This document shows positions 38,632 through 60,174 of a stretch of DNA of 64,000 nucleotides, piece after piece. The notes beneath the pieces were generated by a model that did no database searches, was not told where the DNA came from, and worked only from the letters and a program-made list of their open reading frames with translations. The position numbers and the translations under genes were made by a program. This stretch comes from Psammoneis japonica (lineage: Eukaryota), in contig QPGO01000148.1 of NCBI GenBank assembly GCA_008632985.1, forward strand, positions 1 through 64,000, in the 5' to 3' direction. Numbering within the stretch: position 1 is the first letter of the stretch; every line of letters begins with the position of its first letter.

Positions 38632-38876
38632 TATGTCGGTATAGTTATTAATGAAGGTATATGGAATTAACTGCTACAAAAACAGAAATACGAGAAAAAC
38701 TACTGTTTTTCCATATAATTTTCAATTTTTCATCACTCAGAAATTTTTTTTCTGTCGACGAGCAAAATTTTCAGATTTTTGACAAGTTTTTGAGATTTAG
38801 AATGTATGACACATCCAGTTTTTCTTCTCTCTCACCGCATGTGTTTTCTCCATTGATCACAAACAACAACACAACC

Positions 38877-39671
38877 ATGGCCTTTCCACCATCAATGCGG
38901 TTCATATGTCGATCAGTGTCGTTCACATTCACCCTTTCTTTAGTTCTGCCATCACTATTTATCTACGCCTCCTCATCTAATCCCTCTGCTCCGTCATCTG
39001 AGATTCGCATGGGCACGACCATCGTGGCTTGTCGCTTTGATGGTGGTGTTGTGGTGGGAGCCGATACGCGCACGTCGGTTTCGGGCTATGTCAGCAATCG
39101 TTATGCGCACAAACTATCACCGCTGTGGGATAAATGCATGGTTTGTCGTTCCGGGAGTGCGGCGGATACGCAACATGTAGTGGATCAAGCACGATGGACC
39201 TTCTGGAAAAAGCGGTTCCACAAAACAGTATCGCAAGCTGCTCATTGGTTGAGATATACAGTCAAGAAGGAGAAATTGGAGAGTGTATCATTGATTTGTA
39301 CCGGGTATGATGATGACTTACAACGAGGAATTATTTATAGCATTTCGCCCAGTGGTAGCTTGGTGGAGGAACCATGCTTTACTGCGAGTGGATCCGGTTC
39401 GAGTTATATTTTGGGGCATTTGGTAAATGGCCATGATTTGAAAATGAAGCAAGACGAGGCTGTCAAATTTGTCAAGGATAGTATTCAATTAGCCATGGAT
39501 CAGGATGGCAGTTCTGGAGGATTTGTGAGGATTGTAGTTATCACCAAGGACGGACAACGTGTCATTACGGTGCATCCCTCTCATGTACGAGAAAACAAAA
39601 AGAACAATGACGATCAGTCGTTTCAACGTTTACCAGGCTTTGCGCCGCCAACACTTGTGAAACGAGGGTGA
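38877..39671 (+). CDS. 20S proteasome beta subunit (beta1/PSMB6-like) with hydrophobic N-terminal leader
   Basis: G|TTIVACRFDGGVVVGADTRTS, RSGSAADTQ, SGSGSSY, DGSSGG. Confidence 0.9.
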   Translation: MAFPPSMRFICRSVSFTFTLSLVLPSLFIYASSSNPSAPSSEIRMGTTIVACRFDGGVVVGADTRTSVSGYVSNRYAHKLSPLWDKCMVCRSGSAADTQHVVDQARWTFWKKRFHKTVSQAAHWLRYTVKKEKLESVSLICTGYDDDLQRGIIYSISPSGSLVEEPCFTASGSGSSYILGHLVNGHDLKMKQDEAVKFVKDSIQLAMDQDGSSGGFVRIVVITKDGQRVITVHPSHVRENKKNNDDQSFQRLPGFAPPTLVKRG

Positions 39672-40413: not shown

Positions 40414-41113
40414 TTACTCTGCCTTGAGCGCCGCAGCTTCGTCCCACAAATTCTGAAACAGAGCCGTACTGAGATAGCGTTCTCCAAAACTAGGAATCAC
40501 CACAACCACACGCTTCCCCTTGTTTTCAGGACGCTTTGCAACATTAATGGCTGCCGTTACAGCAGCTCCACAGGAAATTCCACAAAAGAGTCCCTCCTCG
40601 GTGGCCAGCGTCCTAGCCATGGCCATGGCGTCTTCACCCGACACTTGAATGACTTCATCCAAAAGGGAAGTATCAGCATTGCCTGGAATGAATCCAGCAC
40701 CTATACCTTGGATCTTGTGTGGGCCGGGCTTGCCACCACTGAGAACAGCCGACTCGGATGGCTCGACCGCTACAATTTGAAGAGCCGGATTGAGTGGCTT
40801 CAAATGCTGTCCACACCCCGTAAGAGTGAGTTCCTCCTGTGCCGACTCCACCCACTAAAATATCAACCTCACCATCCGTATCCTCCCAAATTTCAGGACC
40901 CGTCGTTTCCCGGTGGATCTTTGGGTTGTCGGGATTGTTAAATTGCTGAAGCAAAAAGCCATCGTCTCCGAGGCTACTGACAATTTCTTCGGCTTTGCCA
41001 ATCGCACCGCCCACACCTTTGGGTGCCGGAGTCAAAATGACCTCAGCACCAAACGCCTTGAGCAATACACGTCGTTCCATGGACATGCTTTCTGGCATGG
41101 TGAGGATCAGTTT
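40414..41113 (-). pseudogene. cysK: cysteine synthase (O-acetylserine thiol-lyase), 3' half; 4-bp duplication frameshift at 40824-40831
   Basis: [15 protein letters not shown]...QQFNNPDNP...GVGTGGT / [12 protein letters not shown]...[10 protein letters not shown]. Confidence 0.95.
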
Positions 41114-41675
41114 CACTGCAAATGAGAATCACTCTGAATAAGCTGTTTTCGCTCTAAATAAAAAATAAACAGAGCATTTTGCTCCGATTGCAAGTGCTAA
41201 ATAATTAATTGTGGCTTTGCTCTATTTAAGCCATAGTCAGAGCGACATGCTCTGTGTATAAGACAATCAGAGCAAAATGCCAACATTTGCCCTGTTCAAC
41301 CGCATTCAGAGGATGCCTTCGATTAAGTGCAATTATTCAGGGCATTCGCTTCAAATAACTGCAGCCTCCTGCGACCTTTTACATTCTCAGAGCAAATGGT
41401 TTTTCTTCAAAGCAAACGAACAATGAACACATGCACACACAATGAGACGCAATGATGGACGATTCAAAGCGTCATTGGCGCACATGCACGCATGCATTCA
41501 TGGTTGCCAGTCAATGCTCGTAATCTCGTCGTTTTTGTTTGCGGCGATCTCGACGAGCATCGTTGTTGCTCTGTTGTTGTCAATTGTCGCCTGTGTCGGC
41601 GCATCGCACACACAACACAATTTTTGCATTTCCACCTTTATGTCTGTGTGAGTCGTGGCCTCCACAGCCTTCTCC

Positions 41676-44600
41676 ATGTGCTGCAAACATTGCTTCTCGA
41701 CTGTTCCATTGACTCAACATGACAACTCCAACAGCATCGTAAACATGGGTGATTGCCTCCATTCCAGCAAATGTCTCAACCCGGAGTGTTCAGTTGATTC
41801 CTTTTTTGTCTGCGAATGCTGCTGGAACAGCAGCAACACAAACAGCAGGTGGTCGTCATCTTCCAGTTCTTAAAGATTGGAAAACCTGCGTTGAGCACGC
41901 CAAAACTCCAACTCATGTGCAATCCTTTAAAGCTTTGAAAGCCGCACCAACAAGCAGTGCAAATGCCGTGTGTGCGCCGGCGGAGCCTGCACACGACGAA
42001 TGTTGGTGCAACGATGACAATGACGCCTCTGTTTCCAAGAGCAAGGAGCCTTCCAACCAAGATGATTGGATTTGCGACGTCAATGATGCCGGCTCACGAT
42101 CCTCCATTGCGCATTGATGATCTCCGACAAGGTTTTGATCCGGACTCCAACAGCCCGGCCTTTTTTTGGTGCGAGCATTCGCACCCCGGACAAGGCATCC
42201 AGAAATTGACAGCTGGCGCTTTCGAATTGCCCGTCACCGAGGTGACCAAAGAAGAGGCCCATTTTTCACTTGTGATGGCTAGCCTGCTTTCACAACTCAC
42301 CGAGAAACAACGTGAATTGTTGGCAGAATGCATGCTGCAAGCCACAAACAGCCGTGATCCAGACTTGTCCATTTTTCGTTGGACTCATGTCCCCACTTCT
42401 GTGAAAGATTTTGAAATGTTGCATTTGTCCAGCAAACGTGCCATTGTGCCAAATTTGCCTCATCCTGTTCCCAGGAAAACCGATGATGGCAGTCATTCCC
42501 ATGTTTCCTTTAAAGACGTGCTTGCAAATGAGTTGGCAAAAGCCACGCAATTTGACAAGTTCTGTTTTGATGCGGACGTCATTGTTCAAGATTCGCAACC
42601 TGCCATTTCGTGCACACCGGCGGCGCATTCCTTGTTCATGGAACTTAAAGAAGATGTCGACAGTTTTGCATTGCATCTTTGGGTGCGAGAATGGCGTGAT
42701 GACTTTGATCCCAATGGCACGAAGAAGTCACGCAATCAAGTGTGGCTCAACACGCACACCTGCTGCCCTCCTCCCAATTCTTCCAGTGGACGCCACACCT
42801 GCTTCATGGCAATGTCGTCCAAGGGAGAAAATCATGAAGTTGTGGAGACAATGTTTGAACGCGAACTGCAGTCGTTGTCTGAAGAAAGCCATTGGTTTTA
42901 CCATGGCGGACTGCAGAAGCTCGCGCGGGTTAAAGCTGGCAAACTCAGTGTTTGTGTGGATCGGCCTGAACGTTCCTGCATGTTTCGTGTTGGAGACCAC
43001 AATGGCAGCTGTTCAACGTTTTGGGAACATGCCTGTCATGCAGATGGAAACTGTTCTTTCAATCACTTGCCTCATTGTCAGCTCTGTCGCAAAGCACATG
43101 TGAGCAACCATTTTAGCACGTCCGAGGATCCTTCTGATGTCGCCGACAATTCACAGGAAGAAGGAGCACCAGTGGATGGCGCAGTTGCAATCAATGTTCC
43201 TCCTGTTTCTAGCACATGTCCACACAATGCTTGTGCATCCTGGAATGTGCTCGACACTGCGTTTCGTTTTCTGGCTCCGGCTGACTGCCCCTGTTCATGT
43301 GACCAACGCGAAGGTGCACCGAAACCTCCCACTGGCAGGGAAGTGACTGTCTTCAACCCGTCGGCACATGACATCCAATCCACTCAAGACTTGGCCACAG
43401 ATCCATCCACATCGACCGATTCTTCTCGTCGCAGATGCAAACGCCAACGTGTGGCCACCCCAAGACAATGGTTGGCCTCCATCAAACTCACTGTTCCCTG
43501 GTTGCAGCAAGCGATCGTGTTTGCGCATCACAACATGAGAACACATCCGCCGGGCACCCCAAGTGCCAAGCGCTTTTGGACCAAAGCTAACCTCACGGCC
43601 CATCTTCGTACTTGTGCCATCATCCAACACCACATCGACACAGCGCACGCAGCTGCAAAATGCAATCTGCCTTGCCCAACACATCCAGCACCTTGGCTTG
43701 ATCCCAAAGCACTTTCACGTTGTCATCATGCACCAATGCACACCATTGGTCTGGGCAATGTTAAAAGTGATTTTGAAATGATGTCCAAATTGTTCTCTCG
43801 ATTTGAACTTCAGGCAACCTTTGGAAAGCAAGCAAACAAATGCTTGCGGTCCATCCAGTCCCTCCGATCAACCAAACATTTTGCGGCTCATCCACTGTCC
43901 ACCAGCAAGTGGGGCACAGGTCCCTGGGTCAGTGAAAATTACTTCTTTTGGGCAAGGACAGTAAAATTCATGGTTGCGCTGCCTGCGCTTCACCAACAAC
44001 GGGTGATGGACAATCACTCGGATTGTGCAGGTGTGTCACGGATGTTGCTTCGATTCGCTTCTGCCACACAAGCTTGTCTGAGCCAAGTCATGTCTTCGGA
44101 GCGCGTTGTTGGGGACCTTCACGAAATGGTTTTGACATGTTTGGATGCAATGGTCGAGATGGACATGTGGTTGATGAAAGCACCCTCAGATGAGGCAGAC
44201 AACGATGCCGTAGAAGGCGACGGTGAAGTTCAGAAGAAAAAGAAAAAAAGGCGAACTTTGTGAAATCTGTTTCACTTGGAATGCTGGGAGTCACGGAATC
44301 CCACCAACATGATGGACCGGCCATTCTGCATTGGGAGGGTGACGATTCTGGAGAAAGTGGTGTGCAAACTGTGAGGCCAGAGGTCAGCATCAAACGCAGC
44401 AATGCAGACTGGCAAACAATCGCTTTGCGTCACATTCACCAACAGGCGACCATTTCTTGGCTTTTAGAACGTGACAGTGAGAAAGGTTCATCGAAGAACA
44501 GACGTCTAGATGGCATCTTCAAAATCCACAGCAACTGGAACACATTGTTGGAGGCAAGACAGCAATGCCTTCCCTTTGCTGGCCTTGTGTCGTCCGATTG

Positions 44601-44955
44601 CACTGTGTGGTTGTTGTTTCAACCAGTGGGTGAAAAAGGAGCTGCTCGCTCCTCTGCAACTGCAGTTGCTTTAGAATTTGTGGATGAGGAAGGTGAAGAA
44701 ATTTTGGACTTGTGTTGGATGGCGCCAGTTCAAGCAACAGACAGGAGAAAATCATTTGATGCGGCAACAGATCTTTGCAACAGTTTGGGACATCAGTTTG
44801 TGCTGGCATTGCCAAGGATGGAAGATGATGGTGAAACTTTCCTAAACAGCTTTTATTGTGTCAGCCATCTGTGGAATGAAAGAACCAGAGATGGATGCTT
44901 TGTGAAAATGGAACTCAGCTTGGACGTTTTCGACGATTGGTTGACAGCCGGCTAA
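41676..44955 (+). pseudogene. CMC/EnSpm-type transposase, frameshifted (A-rich run near 44240)
   Basis: WRDDFDPN, VDRPER...HNG, PMHTIGLGNVK correspond to the CACTA DGF, DxPAR...HxG and MHxxxLGxxK motifs; Cys-rich N-terminus. Confidence 0.8.
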
Positions 44956-45158
44956 CCATCAACTGCTCTGTCATCCATCTCGGTTGACAATCCAGCCTGT
45001 GTGGGGGAGACAATGGCATGAGCAGTGCACGTGCTCCAATGGTGGATGGACCCGTGAAGGAGCAGCGCACATGCTCTTTTGTTTAAAGACGCGCCATTGT
45101 GGCCGACACGCAGCTAGCTGCGGGGGACAAGAAGGACATGCGAGCTGGGTGTCTGCTC

Positions 45159-48100
45159 TCATTTCATGTTCCTCTTTCTCTTTATGAAGTGGAGCTGCAC
45201 AGATTGGTCCCTCATTGCGTTTGACATTTTGTTTTTGGCCAAAATGTCCAACATCGCCTCTGGTGGATTAGACAGCAGTTTGTCAAAATTGAACTCAAAT
45301 GCAATTTGAATGGGACCATGATCCCAGGTCGACCCGGCCCAATCATTGTCCTCACACAGTTCTTTGGCAATCTCCTCCATCTTTTTTTCCTCACTTTTGT
45401 GTGAAAAGTTTTGGATCAATCCACCGGGAGGCAGCTCTTCGGGGTCACTGGAACCATCAAAGTGACAAAGAAAATTCGCCTCATCGTGGAAAACAAAAAA
45501 TGACATTCCTGCAAAACAGACATCGCAGCAGTTTACCCTCCCTTTGCTGATCCAGAAGTGAAACATTTTGCAAAGAATGTTCTCAACAAAACGAATGGTG
45601 AAGTGAGTGTCTTTCTTGTCATCACCCCCGGGGTTGTTCAACTGCACGGTGAATGCACCCTGTGTGGTTTGAGCCAAACGGAACATGTCCGCATCGTCCA
45701 TCTTGCCCAGTCCACATTCTTCGGCAATTTTTATGTCAGGGAGGGAATCCTTTTTGCAGTGGCAATGATGCAGCATCCAAATGGGAAGCTGGCCAATTTC
45801 TGCCATGATCGCAATCGAATGATTGAGACACAAGACGTCGCATTGCGGGGAGAATTCAGACAACTGATTCATCAGTTTCTTGTAAATGGAGACGATGTCT
45901 TTGTTTTGTGGCTTGTTTGCATGCTCATTCCAAATGTCACAAATCCACTTTCCCTTTTCATCATTCCGTTTTTTCCATTCAGCCTTGGTTGGCAAGGGTG
46001 GTCTCTTGCTGCGTGACGCACATCGCAGAGGGATGCCTCTAGAATGTGCCTCTTTTACGTGGACCATCATTTCGTGAATGAGATGTCCCAATCCGCAGGG
46101 GTCGCTTGGTGGCTGGAAGGCATTGACGGATGAAAGAACCAACGCAACTGCTCCAAAGCAACATGACTGCGCCGGGTGCACCTCGAAGCAAGTCTGAACA
46201 GCGACAATCTGCGGCAACGTAAGTGAGAATTTGTCAATCATTGCGACAATGAAGTGCAGAAAGAGCTGGTGGCATGACGTTGGTTCCATGTTGCAGTCGC
46301 CTTTTAATGCATCGATTCCTTTGCATCCCTCAAATCCTGTCAAGTGATCATGGACAATTGCCGGCTCCAGTCGCTGCCGGTGCACGGGCAAGTTTTGGCA
46401 GGTGCGAATGGCTTGTGTTGTGATGGGCAAGGCAAGTCGAATCCTCTTCTCCGCAGTTTCTACAGAACTGCGGGTGCAAGCAATGACAGCATCTCTTGTT
46501 TCTCCATCATTTGTGATTTTTGAAACAGACAAAACTGGGGTCATGTCTTTGTTTTGGCCGTTGCATTCATCCGAGTGGCAATCCGTAATTTTGCCAAATT
46601 TGGCATTTGCCAGACGCAGTGCCTCCACGACATCATTTGCTGAGGCATCCGGCAATGAACCCGCATGGTCTTGACGTTGGTTTTTCATCTCTTCATCGTG
46701 CCACAATCTAGATGTAAAAGCAGGATTCAGTGTCTCCGCAATTTCAGACATTGACTCAAAAAAAGGCATTGCTTCCTCAGTCCCTTTCCCAACTCGAGGC
46801 CGTGCAACGCCATCAGCATGGCCTTCCCTTGTAGTGCTTGTGTTGGTGCAAACGCCGAAATCTGCAAAGTGGTCCTTTGGTTGACGATGGGTCCCAGTTT
46901 TCTTGGGCTTGTTGCTTTTCTTTTTCTGAAAACGTTTTCTCTTGCCAGTTTTCTTGCCAACATTGCCTTTCCTTGTTTTCTTTCCCTGGTTGCTTTTCGA
47001 CTCACGTTCATGGCATTTGTCAATCAGCACGCGCGATCGGTCCCAGTCAATGCGGCAGATTGGGTGTTTGTTTGGAAAGTGGTCAAGCACCAACATGAAG
47101 TCATTGCAATGGTCGGAATCAACATCATGCAAGGACCATTTGATGTCAGTTTCATCCTGTCCAAGTGTCAACGCCAAATCCAGAATTGGCACTTGGCAGT
47201 GGGGGATGTCTGCTCTGCTTGCCAAGTGAACCTGCAGTTTCGACTGGAAGACAACATGCAGATGGGTGGCACACTTTTGCCTGCATTCTCCAGACAGTTT
47301 CCCCAAATTGTCAAGTGCTTTGGCTTTTCCAGAATTACAACGGAAGTGAGCACTGTTCATCTCCTCAAACACAAAAACAACATTGAACATGTTTTTGGCA
47401 TGCAAGCTCTGTTCTTGCAGCAGGGAACGGGACAACACTGTTTTCTCCCGCCGAGTCTTGCAGTTGCCAGTGAAAGTTGGACGCTGCATCTGCAAGGGCA
47501 GTGCTGCCTCAAAAGCGCTTGAATGGCAATCAGATGATTCGTCTCTGCTTCCATTGGGCAAATCAGAATCGGAGAAATCAATGGGAAGTGCTGACACAAC
47601 TGCGCCATCATGCCAATGCGATGATGATTGGTCGCTCTGACTTGAGAAAACAGAATCAATGACATCACTGTTTGTTGATTGTTCCTCGACGTGATGCACA
47701 GAAGCCGAGTCCTCATGGCGTTTTGCTTCTTCCCGCATGTGCTGCACACTCAGCAAGCAAAGCAACCGGTCTGCTGGTCTTCGCTTGCGAGGAGGTGGAG
47801 ACCGTCCCAGGGGAGATTCCAGGCTGCGTGACCTGGATGTGGCAGATCTTGTGCGGTGTGAGATTGGACTGCTGCTTCTGTTTCTGCGGAGTTGCATTTG
47901 ACAAAATGGGACCATGCCACTGTTGGTGGGTTGACTTGTTCTGCTTGAACTCCTTGAGCGGATGCTGTCATCTGCAGAACGTGCGGGAGGATGGCTTTTG
48001 TCCCAACCGCGACTCTCAGATTTCCTCAATGCACCCAACCTGTGTGAGCGCAACGAATGCCTGGGTTTGCGAACACGCGATCGACCCCGACACCTGGATG

Positions 48101-48854
48101 GTGACCTCAACATTGTTGGAGACCTGTTTTTTGACCTGGAGGGTGACCTGCACCTGGATGGTGACCTGTGCGGTGACCTGTGTCTACGCCGAGGTGACAA
48201 TCTAGACCTTTCATTGGAAGAATCCAGAGACCTTCGACAAGACCATTGCGGTGAACTGGATGGAGACCTTTGGCGTGACCTCTGCCGCGATTGCAATCGA
48301 CCTTGGTGATCCCTGCATGGAGAGCAGGGAACAGCACCACAACGTTCCCTGCAACTGTGCCGGGAACTTGAGTTGTGGCAACCCATGGATGGTGACCGAC
48401 ACCGTCGCCGATGCCTTCGACAAGAATGAGACCTAGACCCAGAACAACGAGACCTTGATTGACAAGGAGAACCACGCAAAGAAGCTCCAGAATGACAATG
48501 ATGTCTGGTCCGATGACGCGATCGAGACCGAGAACTTGACAAAGAGCGAGACCGAGAACTTGACCAAGACCGGGACGGCGATTGACACCTTCGTCGTTGG
48601 TGGGAATTCGACCTCGACAGGCATCGCCGTTTAGACAGTCTGCGTTCCCTGGATCCGTCGTTTCGATTTGACCACAACCGACCTGTGGAACTTTGAACAG
48701 GCGATTCGGATCTTTGACGAATCAAGCGACCCGGCGGATCTCTTGATGGACGCGCACTCCTTGTCCTTCTTCCCTTCGGAGCGCCGGATCTGCTCCAAGC
48801 GGGAGCGTCACATTTGCCTTTTCTGTGATGCATGGATGGTTGGAATTTGAGCAA
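45159..48854 (-). CDS. 1231-aa RS-rich protein with TET/JBP-like and HhH/ADDT-like motifs (hypermutated cargo)
   Basis: DGVARP, CHSDECN, RDAVIACTR, FVENILCK; collinear with the 220-3122 protein. Confidence 0.6.
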   Translation of the reverse strand: MLKFQPSMHHRKGKCDAPAWSRSGAPKGRRTRSARPSRDPPGRLIRQRSESPVQSSTGRLWSNRNDGSRERRLSKRRCLSRSNSHQRRRCQSPSRSWSSSRSRSLSSSRSRSRHRTRHHCHSGASLRGSPCQSRSRCSGSRSHSCRRHRRRCRSPSMGCHNSSSRHSCRERCGAVPCSPCRDHQGRLQSRQRSRQRSPSSSPQWSCRRSLDSSNERSRLSPRRRHRSPHRSPSRCRSPSRSKNRSPTMLRSPSRCRGRSRVRKPRHSLRSHRLGALRKSESRGWDKSHPPARSADDSIRSRSSSRTSQPTNSGMVPFCQMQLRRNRSSSPISHRTRSATSRSRSLESPLGRSPPPRKRRPADRLLCLLSVQHMREEAKRHEDSASVHHVEEQSTNSDVIDSVFSSQSDQSSSHWHDGAVVSALPIDFSDSDLPNGSRDESSDCHSSAFEAALPLQMQRPTFTGNCKTRREKTVLSRSLLQEQSLHAKNMFNVVFVFEEMNSAHFRCNSGKAKALDNLGKLSGECRQKCATHLHVVFQSKLQVHLASRADIPHCQVPILDLALTLGQDETDIKWSLHDVDSDHCNDFMLVLDHFPNKHPICRIDWDRSRVLIDKCHERESKSNQGKKTRKGNVGKKTGKRKRFQKKKSNKPKKTGTHRQPKDHFADFGVCTNTSTTREGHADGVARPRVGKGTEEAMPFFESMSEIAETLNPAFTSRLWHDEEMKNQRQDHAGSLPDASANDVVEALRLANAKFGKITDCHSDECNGQNKDMTPVLSVSKITNDGETRDAVIACTRSSVETAEKRIRLALPITTQAIRTCQNLPVHRQRLEPAIVHDHLTGFEGCKGIDALKGDCNMEPTSCHQLFLHFIVAMIDKFSLTLPQIVAVQTCFEVHPAQSCCFGAVALVLSSVNAFQPPSDPCGLGHLIHEMMVHVKEAHSRGIPLRCASRSKRPPLPTKAEWKKRNDEKGKWICDIWNEHANKPQNKDIVSIYKKLMNQLSEFSPQCDVLCLNHSIAIMAEIGQLPIWMLHHCHCKKDSLPDIKIAEECGLGKMDDADMFRLAQTTQGAFTVQLNNPGGDDKKDTHFTIRFVENILCKMFHFWISKGRVNCCDVCFAGMSFFVFHDEANFLCHFDGSSDPEELPPGGLIQNFSHKSEEKKMEEIAKELCEDNDWAGSTWDHGPIQIAFEFNFDKLLSNPPEAMLDILAKNKMSNAMRDQSVQLHFIKRKRNMK

Positions 48855-49524
48855 GCAGATGCTGCAATGAAAAACAATGAGAGCAGAACAGCTTCACAAC
48901 TCCTTTGTCATTTGTGCAAGAGTGTGATTGTGCGATGATGATGTCGCCTTCATCTGGTCGTGATTGAGAGATGATGTATGTTGGGTGAGTCAGAACACCG
49001 GAATCCGGAATTTTGCATGTCATCCCCTCACGTGGCCAACTGGTTGTGGCCGCCTGCAGCGCCACAAACAGAACACCACAAAAATTCTGCATTCATTGTA
49101 GAATTTAATGAGAAAACAAGTCCCCTCTTTTCTGTGACATCACTGCATTTGCCGCATGTTACAATGACACAAATGTCGGAAAAGCGTGCATCCACAACAC
49201 CGCCGCTGACACCGCTGTTGTCATCAAACTTTGCTGTTCATGCAATGCTGTCATCATTCATCCTTCCATTGCATGTTGTCATTCTCATCAACTTGTTGAC
49301 AAGTGTTGACAACATTGTGACCTTTGGTGAAGGTTCATTGCGAGACACCACCAGAACCGAAACTTCATCGCTGCTGTGAGAACAATGCTGAGCTCACGGC
49401 GCAGTCTGCACATTGTTTCTTTATCTCGCATCTCAGACAATTTGGTGTGCATGCTGCACTTCGTTGACTCTTTACAATCATCATCAGGTGCTGCCACGAA
49501 ATTGGTTGCAGACAAAGTCAGCAA

Positions 49525-50757
49525 CTTCCCTGTGTCTCCGCGTCAACTGCTGACAATTGCACAGCAACGGACGAGTGGGACTGCCAGTCCGTCGCCCAGC
49601 GACATTCCGCTGATCGGTTTTCAACAATGAGACCTGGAGAACTGGCTGGGGCACCCTCGTTGTGTTGTGCAGTTTGAAGAAAAGGGGACCGGCTGATCTG
49701 GGTTGTGTTGGCAGACGGCGCAAGCTCCTTTTTCCTTGACATTGTCAAGAACATGTGTGTTCCAAGGCCACCATTGTCGGTGGGTCGTCTCCGTCTGTCA
49801 CATCTCTTCCCTGTGTCTCCGCGTCAACTGCTGACAATTGCACAGCAACGGACGAGTGGGACTGCCAGTCCGTCGCCCAGTGATGTTCCGCCAATCGGTT
49901 TTCAATGACAAGACCTGGAGAACTGGCTGGGGCACCCTCGTTGTGTTGTGCAGTTTGAAGAAAAGGGGACCGGCTGATCTGGGTTGTGTTGGCAGACGGG
50001 GCAAGCTCCTTTTTCCTTGACATTGTCAAGAACACATGTGTTCCAAGGCCACTGTTGTCGGTGGGTCGTCTCCGTCTGTTGCATCTCTTCCCTGTGTCTC
50101 CGCGTCAACTGCTGACAATTGTGCAGCAACGGACGAGTGGGACTGCCAGTCCGTCGCCCAGTGACATTCCGCCAATCGGTTTTCAACAACAAGACCTGGA
50201 GAACTGGCTGGGGCACCCTCGTTGTGTTGCACAGTTTGAAGAAAAGGGGACCGGCTGATCTGGGTTGTGTTGGCAGACGGGGCAAGCTCCTTTTTCCTTG
50301 ACATTGTCAAGAACACATGTGTTCCAAGGCCACTGTTGTCGGTGGGTCGTCTCCGTCTGTTGCATCTCTTCCCTGTGTCTCCGCGTCAACTGCTGACAAT
50401 TGTGCAGCAACGGACGAGTGGGACTGCCAGTCCGTCGCCCAGTGACATTCCGCCAATCGGTTTTCAACAACAAGACCTGGAGAACTGGCTGGGGCACCCT
50501 CGTTGTGTTGTGCAGTTTGAAGAAAAGGGGACCGGCTGATCTGGGTTGTGTTGGCAGACGGCGTGAGCTCCTTTTTCCTTGACGTTGTCAAGAACACACA
50601 CTTTCCAAGGCCACTGTTGTCGGTGGGTCGTCATCGTCTGTTGCATCTCTTCCCTGTGTTTCCGCGTCTGTCGCCCACCGACAGTCCGCCAACTGGGTTT
50701 TCAACAACAAGACCTGGAGAACTGGCTGGGGCACCCTCGTTGTGTTGTGCAGTTTGA
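49525..50757. repeat. 281-bp tandem repeat, ~4.4 copies, inside the CACTA element
   Basis: Unit starts at 49525, 49806, 50087, 50368, 50649; last copy internally deleted. Confidence 0.95.
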
Positions 50758-50800
50758 CGCAAACAAGGCAGCAGCAAAGGGAAGCGAGGATTCGCCTGCG

Positions 50801-53800
50801 ATGTCAAGGGACAATGGAATGAAAGCTCTTGCCAAAGCGGCTGTTGTGGCTTCCCGAGAAGAGAATGAGGAAATCCGGTTGTCACAGGAGGAGAACAACC
50901 ACAATTCCCAGGAAGAAGATGTGGAAGAAGAGGAGGAGGAAATGCCGGAGGAAATGCGGACATCAGAGGAGGACAAGGAAGCTGTGAATTCTAAGGAAAT
51001 GGACAATGATGCTTCTCAGGAGAAGAAAGATGCGGGTTCTTTACCAAAATCATCAAAATCCAAGGAGGGGGACATTCAACACATTCCCACCAAGCTCCGG
51101 CGTTTTGTGAATGCAATCAAACATGACATGTCAAAGCGTGTGTGGGACAATGTCCACCACACTTGTCCCTTGTTTACCGTGGTCAACCCAAGCACAGAAC
51201 CAAAATCACTGACAACACTGGCAAATTCTGGACGCGGGCCGAACAATCGCGGGAAGAAACACATTTTGTTGCATCACAACCAGAAGGGGTTGTCATCCGA
51301 CTTCGGCAAAGAAGCAAGTAAAAAAGCAAGGGCAGCTGTAAAGGATTTTCTTCTTCGTGAATTTAATCAAGAAAACGAAGGCGACATTGTCGACTTGTTG
51401 AACAACAAACACACTCACATTTTGGGAATTTGTGCAATGCCAAAAAATCAAGAAAGTGGCAAACTGGCAACTGATCTTGTCGCTGCATTGTTGTGTCGGT
51501 GCATTGAATTGGTGCCAGCAACAATTGTTGACCATGTTTGAGTCGACAGAGGAGCCAAAGTGCACAACCATGGGTTGTGCCCCTTCCTGATTAGCCTGGC
51601 TCAATCTGTCGGCCACACGGTTGTTGGCACTTGGGACACAATGCTGCATTGTCAAGTCAAGCTCAAACAACACTGCTGTGAAAGTTTGGGTTTCGAGGAC
51701 ATCACAGAGGAAATGAATGAGGAGCCCTCTTGGGAAAGAGTGAGACACCATTGGAGTTGGAATGCTTTGATCAAAGAGGACGGAGATGACACCAGGGCAC
51801 TGATGGTGAAACGCAGAGTCACCACACGTTGTGCAAAAATTGCGTTGCCCATCTCTCACACAGAGGATGATTTCCAGTGCAATGTAAAACATTGGCGAGA
51901 TCGTGTTGGGTTCTGGAGCAGCAAGAAGAGACCCGCCGATCAACACCAAGATTTGGTGGATCAAGAGAAAGACCTCATCTACAAATCGTCAGTGGTGATG
52001 GTTGGTGATGCGACACTGGATTCTTTTAAAGATTCCTGGCAAAAACACATGGATGGACGCCAATGGTTTGACACTGGAAAGTGCATTCACGAATCCTGCG
52101 AATGTTGCGTGGGTGCAAGTGACGCCAACCAAGTTAAGTCACATTTCGAGACAACGGCTTTGTTTGCCGCAAGCGTCAATTTCTCCTGCCAAATGAGCAA
52201 ATTGGCAAATGATGAAACATGGAAAAGAGCGGCATTTTGATCGAGGACTTCCGAGCTGGCTCAAAGAGCGAAATGTGTGAGGGGCAAGTTTGACGCAACT
52301 GCGGAGTCGGGAACTGACAACCGGAAGTGTGTTCTCAACCCCAAGCATTGCCAACGGAGTCGGAGCGATTCAGATGAAGACATGGAAATGGAAATGCCTT
52401 TGGGTGATGATGGAGCCACACGTCAACTTCTTGAAAGCATCCATTTGAAGTGCAACACGTGCAACATGGTGTTTCCCATCGATTACAACCAGGAAGATCA
52501 AGGTGGACTGTCACCAGCAGCAACTTTGTTTTCAGCGCTTGCGGGACCTTGCCATGATCATGCAATGTGTGTTCCGGGCAAGTGCCCCATTTGCACTGCA
52601 CAAAGCAAAAGTGCAGTGTACGAACTGCTGGTTGGTGCTGCATGAGAAGACAGAGAAACTCTGAAGGACCTAGAGAAACGCCAAGTGCGGTTGAACAAAA
52701 AGGATTTCTTTCTGCCACCTTTGCGACACATTGCAATTTGGTGCAAAGAAGCGGAACAACTGCATTGGTGCCAGATCAATCGGTCATTCCGACAATGTCG
52801 TTTTACAGAGCTGGCGAAGGAGGCGATGCTTGACAAAAAATTCTCTGCAAGGGGAAACAAGAGAGAAAAGAAGGAACCGAAACCACAAGAGGGAGATGGT
52901 GACCTAGAGGAAGAGGAGTCCGAATTGGAACCAGAAGATCAAGGTCTCCTTGTGTCACAAAGAAAAGTGTTGTCTGCCAGGGACAAGAAATGTCAAGATC
53001 TACGTCATGAGGCGAGGATGTGCTGTGAGGATGCCAAAGAATTGGAACGGCTGCATGGTTTTGAGCAGGTCGATCGGGCCACACGGCCGGATGAAAGTGA
53101 GGTGCCAGGTGATGCTGTTGATTGTGAAGGACCAGTTTTACATGGATGGTTCGAAGATTTCAAGCACGGCAGAACATTTGCTGGAGACTGTTTTGGAGCG
53201 ACGAATGACAAGGACATTGGAGGAGGGCCGATGAACCTTGTTCGAGCCGCAATTGAGGAAGCTAAAAAGAAACCTGACACAAGAGTGATTTTCAATGCCA
53301 GACAAAAGAGGCAAATTGGCAAAAGAGCTGATCACGCAACAAACAATGGTCAGGTTCACAAAGTGAGATGGCTGACAGCAAAGGAGCCAATGAAGGAGGG
53401 GCTTGTGGCCGATGATGATTTTGAAGGTCCGGAGGGAACGCCAGCATTTGTGGGGGTTGGCACAAGGAAGAAACCGTGCCATCACACCATGGAGTGGGCA
53501 AGAGCCAATTTTCAGCAGCGATGTCCCACAGTGCACAAGGCCATGTGTGATTGGGAACCAGGGAAGAAATGGTGCAGACTGCCGGAGGGTCACGTGTTGG
53601 ATAAAAGCGGGCTGGAATTTCCCAGCTCGGGACCCCCAGTCAAACATCAACAAGGGGAGAAAGACACGTGCGTGTTTTTGAGCCTGGCCAGTGTCCCAAA
53701 TTACATTGGAGATGAAAGGATGGAGCGACACATTGTGAATTGCATGGATCATTCTTGCAGATCAGAGAACACCAACAACAAACGGTTGGAGTTTGCCGTT

Positions 53801-54199
53801 GGCATGTTGTTGGGACAAAAGCAGAAGCTTTGTCCTCCACTGGCTGCATCAATGAAGTGGCGCGCATGCAAGAAGCGTCAGAAAATGGCAGCTGGCAAGA
53901 GGGGATTCTTCGATTTGACCACCCACGTTGCCGATGACATCGTTCTTTGTCGGTTGACAAACAATCACTGCATTGCTTTGCACGGTGGTTGGATCTTCGA
54001 CTCCAATCATGAATTCGCTCTTCCGGCAAAAGACATTCAGTGGTTGAATTGGTGTTTGGGGAATGACACATTTGAAACAGATGCACTGGCAGAAGATCCA
54101 AAATCAGCAGTGGAGGAAGCAGTTTTTTTTGAAATGCCGAAGGCTGTCCAAACAAGGTTGCGTAAATGCAAGCGGCAAGACAATGCAACCACAGGTTAA
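50801..54199 (+). pseudogene. ~1130-codon GNAT acetyltransferase + papain-like (C39-like) peptidase fusion, broken by three in-frame TGA
   Basis: ORFs 50579, 51560, 52277 and 52685 share one frame. GNAT-like NHGL..FLI and CCESLGF (=YYESLGF). Peptidase QQGEKDTCVFLSLAS, NHCIAL, WIFDSN. Confidence 0.65.
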
Positions 54200-55569
54200 T
54201 TCTTCTCACTTGGCATGGTTGTCGGGGCCAACGATTTCCAGGCATGCAGGCGTTTGCGAGTCACCAATGTTTTGCTGACAAGCCCGGCCTTTTCTGCAGC
54301 ACGCAACAGTTGGCACGTTTGCGGCAGTGTGTGAGGCTTCCCACCAAGGACATTCATCATGAGCCCCTTGGTTTGAAAACACGTGCCCGCGGGTTGATCC
54401 GCAAAATGACTGAGCAATTTGTGCACGCCGCTCATTTCCTCGTCCGTGTGCGGGTGTGCGTTTAACCAACAGCGGCATCCATCAACAATGCATTGGCTCA
54501 CAAGAGGCTTCGTCCACTGATCGTGCTTTTGGACTTTCACGTTGTCCAATGGGGTGGCGCAAAGCAAAGGAAGGAAACGATTCTTGGTCGCTGGCGTCAG
54601 ATCACTTCGTTTCACAGGAGCAAACACAAGCAAGCCGCTGCCCCACGCATCTTGCTCTGTCACTTTGAGTTTCTTTAGGACAGTTTGTTGACGCTTGGCT
54701 GTGAGACAAAACTGTGAAGTTGCAGTCTTCCATGTCATGACAATTTGTTTGCAATCCATGCCCGTGGAGGTGCCACGATTGGGAAGAGATGATGTCATGC
54801 TGCAAAACCGATTGTGATGATCGGGTTTTGCTAAAACTGTGCCAGCTTGCAGCCATTTGCCCATGGCAACACAGGCAACAGCATCAACAAAATGCTTGGG
54901 TTTAGCCAGGCATGACAGCATGCATCCACTGCGTCCGCCTGTCACAATTTCGTCAACAACAATCTCAAAGGAATGGCGGTGAGCCAACCGACCAAGAGAT
55001 TCTAGAAAGTTGTCGCTGAGTGTTGCACCATTGTTTGCCAGCATTAATTCTAAAAACAATGCAGCGATTGGCACCTTCTTTGCAGCCTGCATCAAACAAC
55101 GGAGATGAATGTGGTTGAGACAATCGTTTTCGCACTCACTGAGCTCCGCGGAGCTCAGAGTGCCTGGCACATGATGCGGCAGCACAATGGTGTGATTGCG
55201 TGTAAAAGAGTCAAACACGTCGTCCGGATGCATTGCTGCGCTCGGACCATGTTCTGCACTGAACGTGCTGGCAGTCCAACAGTGGACAGGCCCATGATCA
55301 CCGGCCACATAACTTCCACATGCAATCAAACATCCGTCATTGTGCCCTCCCGTCACAGAATTAATTGCAAACAAATTTGCATCGGAGCCGTTTGGCATCA
55401 CTTTGTGCAGCAGCAATTCACCATCAAAGTGACGAAAAACAACTTCTTCTAACTGCTTGTGGTGGCCGATGTCCATGGAAGAATTCATCAAATCTTCGCC
55501 ATTGCGTTTTAAGCCACGCGGGCTAACGGCAACCAAATTGCACCCCCAATTGTTTGCCATGTCGTCCAT
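54196..55569 (-). CDS. class-III PLP-dependent aminotransferase-like protein (hypermutated cargo)
   Basis: NGSDAN, GSYVAG, LFLE, VVDEIVTGGRSG, MGKWLQAG. Confidence 0.75.
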   Translation of the reverse strand: MDDMANNWGCNLVAVSPRGLKRNGEDLMNSSMDIGHHKQLEEVVFRHFDGELLLHKVMPNGSDANLFAINSVTGGHNDGCLIACGSYVAGDHGPVHCWTASTFSAEHGPSAAMHPDDVFDSFTRNHTIVLPHHVPGTLSSAELSECENDCLNHIHLRCLMQAAKKVPIAALFLELMLANNGATLSDNFLESLGRLAHRHSFEIVVDEIVTGGRSGCMLSCLAKPKHFVDAVACVAMGKWLQAGTVLAKPDHHNRFCSMTSSLPNRGTSTGMDCKQIVMTWKTATSQFCLTAKRQQTVLKKLKVTEQDAWGSGLLVFAPVKRSDLTPATKNRFLPLLCATPLDNVKVQKHDQWTKPLVSQCIVDGCRCWLNAHPHTDEEMSGVHKLLSHFADQPAGTCFQTKGLMMNVLGGKPHTLPQTCQLLRAAEKAGLVSKTLVTRKRLHAWKSLAPTTMPSEKN

Positions 55570-56447
55570 GGCGTCGTTTGGGATTGTTCAATGCGCAAAA
55601 GAGCAAGATGCAAGATTCAAGAAGAGTCCCAAAAGATGATTGGATGGAAAAGAGGGGAGGGATCGCAGCTCTGTTGATGGGCTTACACAGCGCAGAGGAT
55701 TTGTGAAAATGAGGTGGAGCAACGCATGTGCTCTCAATCACCAAAAGCGCAAAACACGTGCATTCTGCTGCACTGCGCATTTGCAGACAAGCCCTGCACG
55801 CAGGGCCCCACACATGTTCCACACGCTGAAAGAGCAGCACGCGCGCGCACATGCACTCCCACCCAATCGTGTGATTGCACAATGCATTTCATTCAACAAC
55901 GTAGATGAAGCAAGCACTTTAAAAAAGAACACACATGAAAAATCAAACTTCAATTGTGGAAAATCATGCATTCAAAAGTGAACCAATGAGAACCCAATTT
56001 TTGTTCAAGGAAAATTTTGTTTCAAATGGGAGGAAAGAACAATCTTCTTAACACAACAGGTCGACATGGTTGTCAATGTTCATTTCAGAACAACAATGCT
56101 TGATTGAAACAATGAAAAATGCAGAAAAGAACAAAACTGAATGCAATTCAAAAACCGTGCAATGAGAACATGCAACCGTGACTTTGCAATTGTGTTGAAC
56201 AGATTCGGCTCGTCCCGGACCATCCACAAGCACAAAAAGCGATTAGAAGTCGAAAACACAATGACAAATTCATTTCATCAGACACAGGTGTCGGTCGTCA
56301 GCCTTGATCTTACAAACACATCGAGGGCAAACACTTCAACAGAGGGAAACACAACCCCGTCAAGGACAGATGTTGCAACAGTGGGGAACACAGGTGGGTG
56401 CATTTGAAATCAAAGTGTGCGTTTGGAAGCTAACATTGTGATCTGAC

Positions 56448-57743
56448 ATGCAGTGGGAAGCTTCCACAACAAATCCAGGGGAAAAAATGACAGCACCCAA
56501 TCGTCCATTGGATCATCCAAGAGACTTTTTCCATCCGACGACAGGGGCCAACCCCACAAGACCAGAGGATGCTGCTCTTTTGTGGTCATGCCGAAAGGCA
56601 CGTCCACAACTTGGTGAGGTGGAGACGGTGCCACCCAATGGCAAGAAGATGCTGCAAGAGGTGGCACAAATCCGGTCGTCCCTTCGACAACACGTCATGA
56701 CTCAACACCTGGAGGGCTGTCGGAAAAATGCAATGGACAAGGAAGTGGCAATGCCATCAACAAACACCAATCCCGTCACAACAGAAGACTTCAAAAACAT
56801 TCTGGCAAGCATGGACAACACAACCGAGAATCAGCAGCTCGTGTGTCAAGTTTTCCATGCCTTTCATCACAACAGAGGATGGCTGGCTGCTGCCATTGAC
56901 AAATGGTTCACCGCAAACAACACGAAGCTCATGCTGCACGCCACGGACGCTTCCAGCAAACCTCGCAAAATGTGTCGCGATGACAGAGGCGGGTTTGCTG
57001 TGGTGGCACGCCAAGCCAAATGTCAAATGATTAAAACGTTCATGGAGTTTATGCTGCGGAAAGCAGGCTGGTGTGTGGCAACTACAATGCACAAGAGCAA
57101 CAAGGAGAATGGAGGTAAAACACATGTGGCCGTCCCCGCTGCAACCAATGCGGAAACAACAACCAAAGCAAAGTTTTACGTCGTGTCGATGAAACCAGTG
57201 GCGGTGAGTTAGTCGCACATTGTTTGTTTGTCCTTTTGTTGACAATCTTGTTTGGTTGACGACTTCGTCCCCATTTCCGGTCCTTGACAGCAGGAGGAGA
57301 ACACCGAAGCATCAAAACAAGTTGCTCAGGGAGCATCCAGCAAAGACATTGACATTGCATCCCTTGTGGACCTCACGAAAACAGCAAGCATGTTGTCAGA
57401 ACAAATGGGAGTTCTGCTGTCCAAGGAAGATTTGCTCCAGTCGATTCGTGGCAGCATGACAGTCACCAGTTCATCCCAAATGGTCAACGAAGAGATTGTG
57501 CTTGATCCGCAACATGAGTCCAAAACTCAGGTGTCAACACTGACCATGGACACCGCGCTAAATTGCCCATCCGAACCAACGGCAAAGCGGAAGTTAACCG
57601 AGAAGGAGAAGGAGGCAGAGCAAATTCCTCGTCGGGAGCGCAATGATGAACTAGAACCCCTCACCATGGATTTGGATGTCATCGATGGTTGGAATTCCAA
57701 TGACGAAGAGTTGGCAGAAATGGTGTCACAGGTGACTGTGTGA
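56448..57743 (+). CDS. hypothetical cargo protein, probably two exons (intron starting GTGAGT near 57204)
   Basis: 254-aa ORF plus a downstream charged ORF; no family recognised. Confidence 0.4.
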
Positions 57744-57959
57744 TTTGGTGGTCCAATTGCTGTGGTGTTGGATGGCTCTAACCAACTTCCGCTTTGATGC
57801 CTTGTTTGGCTTGTCAGACACAGTTGTCTGGGTCCCCTTGTTGCAGGACGGAACAAGAGCCCGGGAGCGCTCCAGCGGTGAGAAAAATGTGTTGTGTCAT
57901 GCGGCTGAATTGCACGTCGCTCACACCACTGTTCTTCATGCAAAAGGTTGATGAGATGG

Positions 57960-58530
57960 ACGAGCCAACTGGTGCAAAAGAAAAGGTGAGAGCATTGTCG
58001 GTGCTCCAGCTGTCAATTTGGACTGTTGCTCCAACAGCTCTTTGGCCTCATTGGGTTGCTGGATGCCACACCAAACCATCCCAGACAGTTGAAACACTGG
58101 AGCGAGCACAAAAAAAACAAGTGAGTGAACAGAGTTCTGAGGCAGAGCGCGACACATGGATTGGATTGACCAATCACACTGCTCCTGCTGTTCTTTATGA
58201 CCAGGCAAATGAGGTGGTTGACAGTGGCAACAATGAAAAGGTGAGAGCAATGTCGGTGCTCCAGTTGCAAATGAAACAATTGCTCCAACCACTTTGGGGC
58301 GTCATTGCTGGATGCCAGACTCAACCATCCCCAGTTGCTGAAATGCCAGAGAGAGCACCACAGAAGATGGCAAGATCACATTGTCTTGCAGCCAATTGTG
58401 CAATTCATCGGACACGTCTCACACAGCCATTGTTGTTTGCAATGAGAAAGGTCGAAGAGACAATGGCAAATGGCGCAAATGAAAAGGTGAGAGCATTGTT
58501 GGTGCTCCGGATTGCCATTGAGAAGTTGAT
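57960..58530. repeat. three diverged ~250-bp units sharing GAAAAGGTGAGAGCAwTGTyGGTGCTCC
   Basis: Core motif at ~57980, ~58235 and ~58481. Confidence 0.7.
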
Positions 58531-58889
58531 CTGACGGCATTCAATGTGTGTCATGATGGCATTTCTTTTGCAGACTCAACCAGCCAACCACTCTAAACCA
58601 TTGTTAAATCCATTGCAAAACAAAGCGGTGAGAATGCATGATGAAGTCGTGCGGATTGTGCGCAGCATCTTGGAAACATCACCTCTCACTTTGTTGTTTG
58701 TTTGCAACAAAGACAAAGACAGCAAATGACAAACGCACACACAAAACTACAACACTCGTTGTGGCTCAAGTGGATCAAACAACTGCTTGCAATTTGCAGG
58801 CACAGAGCAAACGTCATTGTTGATTTGGCATGCCTGTTGTTGTGTTGTCTTGTTCACGCACGCAAACCAATTGTGTTTGTTTGTTTGTG

Positions 58890-59205
58890 TTTGCAGTGCA
58901 AGTGCGAGGAGGCTCACTTGTTCCATGCCTTGGTCCATCAAGATGACGGAAAATATTTCACTCAAGCACACTTCAAAACCAACCCACTGTTCCCTGCAAA
59001 GTGCTGTGGCGAAAAGTGTGATGTTGTTTTTGGATCAAGCAGTTACAAGGTTGGACAAAGAAAGGCAGTTTGGGTTTGCATGAACACATTGAATGGTTCT
59101 TGCAATTGCAGGTTTGCATTGTGTGTGCAGTGTCATCAAAAGACCATGTCAGCTGCATCTAACAAACGGCGCCGAAGGACAACCCGAAACAACAACAACA
59201 AATGA
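58890..59205 (+). CDS. Cys-rich zinc-finger-like exon (CCGEKC...WVC...CRFALCVQC) with basic tail
   Basis: Cys spacing; note some Cys may be mutated Tyr. Confidence 0.35.
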
Positions 59206-59782
59206 CAAGGCAACGCAACACATGCGCACGACGCAACACAATGTGCAATTGCTTGGGATTGATTTCACCGGCACAGTCAGGGTTCGGCGGATGTGTTTGT
59301 CAACAGAGTCAATCGAAGCACAGCTTCGTAAATGACAGTTGTTCAGAGCATCAGCAAATTTGTTCACAGTTGTGATCTGTTTAAATGGAGAGGCTGTCGT
59401 CATCCGTTGTTCATTCAGAGCTTTGCTCTAGTTAAATGTCCGTTGTTCATTCAGAGCTTTGCTCCAATTAAATGGAGATTCCACGGGCATCCAAACATTG
59501 TTCAGAGTCGTGCTCTGATTGAATGGACACAATCACAGCAGCGCTCTGAATGTCAGCACAATGCTCTAATTTGCAAATCAATGCTCTGGATGCAATGCTC
59601 CAAACAAAATTCTATGGCTTCGAATGACCAAATTTACTCTGATTGTGCTCTGTGTGGGCGTCATTGCCTCAATTGGCTCTCATTTGCTCTGAATGTCCCA
59701 CATTGTGTCGGGACAATTTAAACAAAGCGTTGCTCAGAATAAAATGTTCGGAGCATGAATGAAGAGAATCTCATCTGCAGTG

Positions 59783-60174
59783 TTGCATCCCTTGGACGCT
59801 GCCACCATGGCGAGACCGACACCCGCATTGCCCGACGTGGGCTCCACCAGAGTCGTTTTGCCAGGTTCAATGTCACCGCGCTTTTCGGCTTCCGCAATCA
59901 TGGAAAAGGCAATGCGGTCCTTGACGGAATTGGCGGGATTCAAGGACTCGAGCTTGGCGACCATTTCAGCGACACAACCGTCTGTGACCTTGTTGAGCTT
60001 CATGAGTGGAGTGTTGCCAATCAGATCCAACATGGAGTCGGCAATCTTGGACTGGGCGTGCAGTGCAACATGACGAGTCTTCTTGGTGGAGGATGACAGA
60101 GAAGGAACAGGCGCAAAGGCACACGACAAGGCCACGAGAGAAGCAGCGACTGCGGCCAAGCAAAGGAACTTCAT
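59783..60174 (-). pseudogene. cysK: cysteine synthase 5' half with bipartite plastid-targeting presequence
   Basis: Signal peptide + [40 protein letters not shown]. Confidence 0.95.

Follow-up and report, generated by a model that had tools for sequence, protein, structure and literature searches.

A giant transposon copy, probably of the CMCT clade, within a cysteine synthase gene of Psammoneis japonica, and its probable companion, an aminotransferase-like gene

A cysteine synthase gene of Psammoneis japonica is interrupted by 18,669 bp of DNA (contig QPGO01000148.1, assembly GCA_008632985.1), and the locus raises the question of what this insertion is and which of its genes belong to it. 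The insertion occupies positions 41114-59782 of the window, i.e. the whole stretch of 64,000 nucleotides (positions 1 to 64,000 of the contig, forward strand) analysed in the present study. We consider it very probable that the insertion is a copy of a giant cut-and-paste transposon of the CMCT clade, that it was inserted into a cysteine synthase gene of the plastid type, and that an aminotransferase-like accessory gene travels with it. The CMCT clade has been described as comprising EnSpm/CACTA, Mirage, Chapaev, Transib, Plavaka, ESTA as well as Lanisha (PMC12730594).

Ends of the insertion and the interrupted gene

The insertion is bounded by CACTG and CAGTG. Its left terminal inverted repeat (CACTGCAAATGAGAATC, 41114-41130, plus strand) is identical at 15 of 17 positions to the reverse complement of the right end (CACTGCAGATGAGATTC, 59766-59782, minus strand). 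The analytical chance of at least 15 identities in 17 is 7.4e-8 for a fixed pair of positions, and such identity was observed once among 2,000,000 random position pairs drawn from the window. Directly outside these ends, the dinucleotide TT is present in two equal copies, at 41112-41113 on the left and at 59783-59784 on the right. The flanks, TTT before the left end and TTG after the right end, limit the duplication to 2 bp. The five flanking bases on each side (AGTTT and TTGCA) are not alike, which speaks against a 5-bp duplication, and a duplication of 3 bp, the length in EnSpm/CACTA proper, is likewise not present and would break the reading frame of the host gene. Since the length of the element is a multiple of three, a 2-bp duplication alone fits the restored host frame.

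Short motifs were also found in arrays next to both ends. The heptamer TGCTCTG occurs at 33 sites in the window, whereas 100 shuffles gave 17.4 on average and never more than 31. Ten of the 33 sites lie within 460 bp of the element ends (five at 41170-41573 and five at 59344-59691), with TGCTCTG/CAGAGCA present in both orientations. The left subterminal cluster (41140-41580) holds eight AGAGC/GCTCT sites and five exact copies of TGCTCTG, and the right cluster (59340-59700) includes a motif-bearing 36-bp unit doubled in tandem at 59403-59474. Among 250-bp bins, the highest AGAGC/GCTCT density was observed at the two element ends. The pattern of the terminal inverted repeats was absent from the rest of the 64-kb window. 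The initial annotation had reported CACTG termini with 15/17 identity, a TT duplication and subterminal CAGAGC arrays, and all three were confirmed. Termini of the CACTA/CACTG type with subterminal repeats, which we take to be the definition of EnSpm/CACTA elements, are both present.

The interrupted gene lies on the minus strand and encodes cysteine synthase on both flanks of the element. Three host pieces, scanned separately, correspond to positions 3-78, 80-170 and 171-294 of the Pfam PALP profile, so that the element splits the gene between profile positions 78 and 80, and its proposed location within a cysteine synthase gene is borne out. The 5' part (59785-60174, minus strand) covers PALP 3-78 with an E-value of 2.3e-20 and carries a signal peptide whose end reads ...ALSCAF/AP. 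The 3' part (40414-41113, minus strand) covers PALP 80-170 and 171-294 in two frames and matches solved cysteine synthases (7n2t_A at E 5.7e-50). When the element and one copy of TT are removed in silico, the host coding sequence becomes continuous in one frame, and the predicted empty site reads, on the gene strand, ...GGATGCAAACTGATC.... The N-terminus resembles ASAFAP, a motif that we take to mark signal-peptide cleavage in proteins targeted to the complex plastids of algae. Because of this resemblance the cysteine synthase is regarded here as probably of the plastid type, and the sequence as probably that of a diatom or some other alga with such plastids.

The host gene carries a second lesion. 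Near 40824-40831, at a distance of about 290 bp from the element, 4 bp have been inserted (gene strand: GGAACT[CACT]CTTACG), and the frame changes there, between positions 170 and 171 of the PALP profile. Because this frameshift is independent of the element, excision would mend the junction and not the gene. Thus, the earlier proposal that excision restores the CysK frame holds at the junction and fails for the gene as a whole. The 4-bp insertion itself can be read in two ways. It may be ACTC duplicated in tandem; alternatively, it may combine a duplication of 2 bp with CA, the dinucleotide with which the element's end starts, and it would then be the footprint of an excision after a local hop.

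The transposase-like gene and its probable partner, an aminotransferase-like gene

The transposase-like gene (41963-44955, plus strand) consists of two open reading frames (ORFs) of 766 and 224 aa, at 41963-44263 and 44281-44955, and comparison with relatives by tblastn indicated that these are one gene in two frames, since the relatives align across both. The frame changes in an A-rich run near 44230-44250, and the N-terminal region may extend upstream of 41963. At E ≤ 1e-3, 86 relatives with 36-55% identity were found, mostly 1,000-1,260 aa long, and all of them are unnamed or labelled "hypothetical protein". Several fall in clusters with 107, 158 or 204 members, a multiplicity that is expected of a repeated element.

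In an alignment of 21 sequences, the invariant residues were D175, W244, D246-D247-F-D249-P250, D333-R-P-E336, C372, H588, H593 and E658-N659, and C375 was kept in at least 90% of the sequences. The pairs C372-x2-C375 and H588-x4-H593 are placed after the aspartates D246/247/249 and D333 and before E658. A C(2)C plus H(3-4)H signature is reported for EnSpm, Mirage, Chapaev, Transib, Plavaka and RAG1, and most members of the clade have CA..TG termini and duplications of 2-5 bp (PMC12730594). In the present element, the signature (as C(2)C and H(4)H), the termini (CACTG...CAGTG) and the duplication length (TT) all agree with this description. The transposase that the initial annotation had named is supported both by the 86 relatives and by acidic residues on either side of the C(2)C and H(4)H motifs.

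A structural model of the transposase was built with AlphaFold2 from the family alignment and was of moderate quality, with a predicted local distance difference test score (pLDDT) of 66. In Foldseek searches with this model, the top match in the PDB was the RAG1 core (4wwx_B, E 1.4e-3, probability 0.96), and HzTransib (6pqr_A) was matched with a probability of 0.97. Because of the predicted strand order in the model, the candidate catalytic triad would consist of one of D246/247/249, D333 and E658. The nearest named Atlas clusters were those of Plavaka (0.91; 19 of 30 matches), followed by RAG1 and Transposase_21, and these serve as a lead only. When the family profile was compared with the PDB sequences, only chance matches (Tat, syntaxin) were obtained. 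Judging by other members of the clade, a DDE transposase would recognise the CACTG ends, probably aided by the TGCTCTG subterminal sites, and would excise the element and reinsert it with a 2-bp duplication. An aminotransferase-like gene of class III, dependent on pyridoxal phosphate (PLP), would travel and diverge with the transposase as an accessory gene.

The gene in question is intact, encodes 457 aa and lies at 54196-55569 on the minus strand. The protein scored 24.8 bits against PF00202 (Aminotran_3), below the gathering cut-off of 30.5. It has 59 relatives with 29-53% identity, and a precomputed PF00202 assignment exists for 22 of them. All 32 aligned sequences have G61, A64, N65, E174, D206-E207, T210, R213 and K238; S62 and D63 recur in no fewer than 90% of the rows. 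These residues presumably form the PLP-binding core with its Asp and Lys, of the pattern D-E-x-x-T-G-x-x-R-x-G. Over this core, the family profile matched the taurine:2-oxoglutarate aminotransferase 6jix_B at E 2.9e-5. No NCBIfam subfamily could be assigned, the best score being 29.8 bits compared with cut-offs of about 400 or more, and the commonest weak match (25 of 32 members) was the aminotransferase of the daptide type of ribosomally synthesized and post-translationally modified peptides. Judged by its sequence, the protein would be a very divergent member of the superfamily; the assignment appears weak for the window protein alone and firmer at the level of the family.

The relationship between the two genes extends beyond the window. 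Nine of the 59 aminotransferase-like relatives are found on contigs equal in length, to the base pair, to contigs with transposase relatives (9,685, 7,483, 8,803, 12,171, 10,555, 241,019, 431,725, 692,887 and 753,180 bp), an agreement that is very unlikely to have arisen by chance. Five of these matched contigs measure 7.5-12.2 kb, so that only a few kilobases would separate the transposase and aminotransferase-like genes on them. With the pair of the window, ten pairs were available, and their distance matrices were correlated with r = 0.95, a value equalled in one of 5,000 label permutations. Moreover, three subgroups are shared by the two proteins. Host kinship alone could give some of this correlation. 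It appears that the two genes have diverged together over 55-70% sequence difference. Because co-occurrence on contigs and co-divergence with the transposase fit a shared mobile element and not repeated capture from hosts, these comparisons suggest that the aminotransferase-like gene is a conserved accessory gene of the element family, and not a recently captured host gene. The initial annotation had listed an aminotransferase as cargo; the class-III aminotransferase-like motifs agree with that name, and the co-occurrence and co-divergence speak against a captured host enzyme. Measured end to end, the distance between the two genes is 13.6 kb in the window. Since the short contigs force a closer spacing, the intervening genes of this copy are probably not shared by the whole family. 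Searches of open-access papers and bioRxiv found no report of an aminotransferase linked to such a transposon and nothing relevant on a giant EnSpm element of diatoms.

Other reading frames and the decay of this copy

The longest further frame of the element is an ORF of 1,224 aa at 45159-48833 on the minus strand, with an Arg/Ser-rich N-terminal third and a conserved, apparently multi-domain body. When 1.84 billion representatives were scanned in full with HMMER, 93 relatives were found at E ≤ 1e-3, 35 of them at E ≤ 1e-10, with 20-37% identity, and a word-indexed search among proteins of similar length gave no match. The family has an invariant H-x-D-x-x-N and other conserved residues (R, S, C, P and H), and the sole other invariant His, H585, falls in a predicted helix. 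No related Pfam domain was found in 41 aligned rows and 53 further relatives; one distant relative shows FG-GAP repeats, which are probably spurious. The AlphaFold2 model of this protein was confident (pLDDT 80.7, predicted template modelling score 0.80). In Foldseek searches with it, nothing in the PDB exceeded a probability of 0.11 and nothing in BFVD was found at E ≤ 0.001. The leads from BFVD were a JBP1/TET oxygenase of Sylvanvirus (probability 0.38) and the helical domain of a phage kinase of 5-hydroxymethyldeoxyuridine DNA (probability 0.69, TM score 0.54 on the target). Comparison with the PDB sequences, both by profile and with a piece of 201 aa, gave no match, and neither did the Atlas clusters at 0.8 or above or tblastn against phages. 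Against PHROGs, three weak single-member matches were obtained. An oxygenase of the 2-oxoglutarate-Fe(II)/TET/JBP type is not supported for this frame, as neither sequence nor fold matches one beyond the BFVD lead. The oxygenase-like cargo of the initial annotation, which presumably meant this frame, was therefore not confirmed. The first 420 residues (47574-48833) are Arg/Ser-rich, of low complexity and encoded by short tandem DNA repeats, and the relatives also have long N-terminal extensions ahead of the conserved body.

On the plus strand, the ORFs at 50579-51541, 51560-52240, 52277-52645 and 52685-54199 share a single frame, which, from an ATG at 50801, comprises 1,132 codons (50801-54199) with TGA at 51539, 52238 and 52643 and ends with TAA. 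This frame holds three stops, compared with 22-56 in the other five frames and a mean of 63 in shuffles, and because the count is so far below those values, the region is one gene, or former gene, and not four. No match was found in Pfam, including the read-through with X at the stops, nor in the PDB, either for its 457-aa ORF or for the read-through, and no similarity was observed to any protein collected in the analysis. Its end resembles, by eye, a pattern that we take to be of the Ulp1 type (H...D...Q..C), without a Pfam peptidase match. An alternative code with TGA as a sense codon was rejected, as other ORFs of the element end with TGA or TAA and this frame ends with TAA. The frames at 45159-48833 and 50801-54199 are real or former coding sequences. 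Between these divergent genes (48833 on the minus strand, 50801 on the plus strand) lies an internal tandem array at 49525-50668, with 4.1 copies of a 281-bp unit and 95% matches. No strong inverted repeats were found within the unit, which holds two 10-nt pairs only.

Three further ORFs are present on the plus strand at 56448-59205, none of which matched a Pfam model; the Pfam scan was the only search made with them. They encode 254 aa (56448-57212), 245 aa with three repeats of about 250 bp (57797-58534) and a Cys-rich product of 159 aa (58726-59205). The repeats of the second ORF are diverged, with 75-83% identity over 53-nt cores, and each encodes a segment of the type ...EKVRALSVLQL.... 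In total, 62 different ORF translations of the element were scanned with Pfam (63 queries, one ORF being scanned twice). Beyond the sub-threshold Aminotran_3, only chance-level matches to EGF_Tme5, Lectin_C, MAP10_N and Ferric_reduct were obtained, all below the cut-off, and none of the 62 translations matched an oxygenase, GNAT or peptidase model. Accordingly, the GNAT and the peptidase that had been named as cargo were not recovered. The count of at least five cargo ORFs stands insofar as several long ORFs are present, with the restriction that three of those counted are pieces of the 1,132-codon frame, and for this frame, with its three in-frame TGA stops, the description as full-length genes rather than fragments fails. 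Motif spotting by eye had supplied four enzyme names, of which one survived testing.

Several features indicate that this copy is decaying. The ratio of observed to expected (o/e) CpG is 0.68 in the element, with a TpG/CpA ratio of 1.58, compared with a CpG o/e of 0.95-1.19 in the gene-bearing blocks to its left (28-40 kb) and 0.22-0.26 in an old repeat block at 8-16 kb. Because the element is CpG-depleted, it is plausible that the three TGA stops arose by CGA-to-TGA decay of a methylated element, an explanation that is simpler than an alternative code and not proven. With a broken transposase, three nonsense codons and CpG depletion, the copy is probably not autonomous, and it could be moved in trans. 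The element ends and the TT duplication are intact.

Placement among giant transposons and rival readings

Giant EnSpm and Plavaka elements with accessory genes are already known from red algae, brown algae and fungi, and the present element can be compared with each of these. The giant Plavaka of the red alga Bostrychia moritziana is 17.4-19.1 kb long, encodes a DDE transposase and accessory genes PAG1-3 with an adjacent tandem array, and makes up one third of the genome, most copies being degenerate (bioRxiv 10.1101/2025.02.11.637652). The size, the combination of a transposase with accessory genes, some without a recognisable domain, the array beside an accessory gene and the degeneracy are all shared with the element described here, as is the kinship suggested by the Atlas, where the nearest named clusters of the transposase are Plavaka. 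The N6-adenine methylase, SET and ParB domains of the Bostrychia element were, in contrast, not found in the ORFs of the present one, the Pfam Plavaka model is unmatched, the termini here are CACTG..CAGTG, and a PLP aminotransferase-like accessory gene, as found here, is not mentioned in the published passages on Bostrychia. From the brown alga Ectocarpus, giant EnSpm, KDZ and Sola-1 transposons are described, with EnSpm up to 15.2 kb, extra transcribed genes mostly of unknown function and an often pseudogenised transposase (PMC12477816). Compared by description, the likeness lies in the stramenopile host group, the extra genes and the broken transposase, and the loss of autonomy of the present copy parallels that of many giant elements in Ectocarpus. 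The present element differs in exceeding the 15.2-kb maximum for EnSpm, and no aminotransferase is named in the passages on Ectocarpus. The initial annotation had called it an unusually large CMC element: at 18.7 kb it is large, and its CMC-type hallmarks stand at the level of the clade, but EnSpm/Plavaka elements of 15-19 kb with accessory genes have already been published for brown and red algae.

Maize En/Spm (CACTA) has termini of the CACTA/G type, short inverted ends, subterminal motifs in both orientations and at least two proteins, and the present element is similar in all of these respects. It differs in duplicating 2 bp instead of 3 bp, in being about twice as large and in matching neither Transposase_21 nor Transposase_24 of Pfam. 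In fungi, EnSpm, Plavaka and other transposons carry genes for TET/JBP dioxygenases (PMC12730594). The 2-bp duplications, the C(2)C/H(3-4)H signature and an enzyme gene that travels with the transposase recall the fungal Plavaka and EnSpm elements, but no TET/JBP model matched any ORF of the present element, and its termini are CACTG. The locus is distinct in a transposase without a curated model, in pairing CACTG ends with a duplication of 2 bp, and in the aminotransferase-like accessory gene.

Transib makes 5-bp target-site duplications, and Transib is thereby ruled out as the family of this element, which duplicated 2 bp. The duplication is 3 bp in EnSpm and TA in ESTA; PlavakaA and some PlavakaB elements have 2-bp duplications, with termini of TGT..ACA (A) and CATCA..TGATG (B) (PMC12730594). 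EnSpm proper is ruled out by the 2-bp duplication, and PlavakaA and PlavakaB are ruled out by the CACTG..CAGTG termini. An alternative would place the element in some lineage other than CMC proper, for example one like Transib, one like ESTA, or a new branch within the CMCT clade at the superfamily level, so that it would be CACTA-like in its ends only. The RAG1 and Transib matches at the top of the structural search, the second place of RAG1 among the Atlas clusters, the missing match to the Pfam Transposase_21 and Plavaka models and the difference between the 2-bp duplication and the 3 bp of EnSpm all favour this alternative. To our knowledge, however, the PDB holds no CMC transposase, so that, whatever the lineage, no solved relative would be nearer than RAG1 and Transib; in addition, the nearest named Atlas clusters are Plavaka, the duplication differs from the 5 bp of Transib, and it reads TT instead of the TA of ESTA. 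We therefore regard a lineage outside CMC proper as rather unlikely, with enough in its favour to be kept in view. Far less can be said for the reading that the stretch is not a transposon, i.e. that the similar ends belong by coincidence to a segmental insertion, to an intron of great length or to a join made in assembly. A single copy was seen, and the second lesion of the host gene might indicate a decaying region, but the inverted ends fall exactly at the break of the protein alignment with an identity of 15/17 (chance 7e-8), the duplication and the motif arrays are present at both ends, a DDE-type protein of multiple copies is encoded, and the boundaries are not GT..AG. This reading is hardly credible.

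The initial annotation had favoured a CMC element whose cargo comprises several captured, full-length host enzyme genes (oxygenase, GNAT, peptidase, aminotransferase). Several long ORFs do lie inside the element, one has class-III aminotransferase motifs, the 1,224-aa ORF has its invariant H-x-D and the weak structural lead to the viral JBP1/TET protein, and the Ulp1-like pattern was seen by eye at the end of the 1,132-codon frame. These points are outweighed by the Pfam result for oxygenase, GNAT and peptidase (0 of 62 ORFs) and by the aminotransferase-like protein itself, which reaches at most 30 bits where NCBIfam cut-offs are about 400 or more and which co-diverges with the transposase. 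Moreover, three cargo ORFs are one broken frame, and the window contains no paralogue of an element ORF elsewhere. Capture of several host enzymes is thus quite improbable. The preferred reading, a giant CMCT-clade transposon with a co-travelling aminotransferase-like gene, also has points that weigh against it. No Pfam family matched the transposase of the window at E ≤ 0.1; in 20 other family members (E ≤ 0.05) only unrelated Tudor and GRF domains appeared, in one member each, and the Transposase_21 and Plavaka models were unmatched in all 21 members at that threshold. The transposase model was of moderate quality, its Foldseek search gave no match at E ≤ 0.001, and the TM scores were 0.14-0.25. 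The frameshift of the transposase, situated in a run rich in homopolymers, might be an error of assembly, and the three TGA codons at 50801-54199 could lie in in-frame introns. The identity of the paired contigs is deduced from equal lengths in base pairs and not directly seen. Finally, a single copy is visible in the 64-kb window, where neither a second copy nor similar DNA was found.

The locus adds a clean, base-exact insertion in a conserved gene, a transposase family of at least 86 relatives outside the curated models and a conserved aminotransferase-like partner gene, and it may serve as an annotation seed for a family now labelled "hypothetical protein". It also raises the question of what use a PLP enzyme might be to a transposon. 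The extra genes of giant transposons (TET/JBP, methylases, oxygenases) are thought to counter silencing in fungi and in red and brown algae. As a speculation to which we give little credence, the element could represent a widespread, unnamed giant CMCT lineage, whose constant omega-transaminase-like companion acts with the H-x-D protein to alter transposon DNA or chromatin; the chemistry might, for instance, convert an oxidised (formyl) pyrimidine to an aminomethyl base. The hint comes from the conserved linkage of transposase and aminotransferase-like gene, the intact PLP residues and the weak structural leads for the H-x-D protein. If true, such alteration would be an escape from methylation-based silencing, parallel to the TET/JBP genes of fungal transposons and to the genes for methylases and oxygenases in the Plavaka of red algae.

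Several further observations concern the surroundings of the element. About 1.4 kb away from the left end, at 38661-39671 on the plus strand, there is an intact gene for a proteasome subunit (Pfam Proteasome, E 3.6e-32), in AT-rich surroundings with 39-40% GC. At 220-3122 on the plus strand, three consecutive ORFs of 303-338 aa, 21-23 bp apart and without a Pfam match, could represent a single broken gene or else a family of repeats. Two very long ORFs at 26976-31826 (plus strand, 1,616 aa) and 32892-35717 (minus strand, 941 aa) gave no Pfam match; the region around them has 52-57% GC and normal CpG. The region at 8001-20000, with a CpG o/e of 0.22-0.41, a TpG/CpA ratio of about 1.8 and a weak remnant of a Copia-type reverse transcriptase at 11251-11907 (minus strand), is probably old methylated retrotransposon debris.

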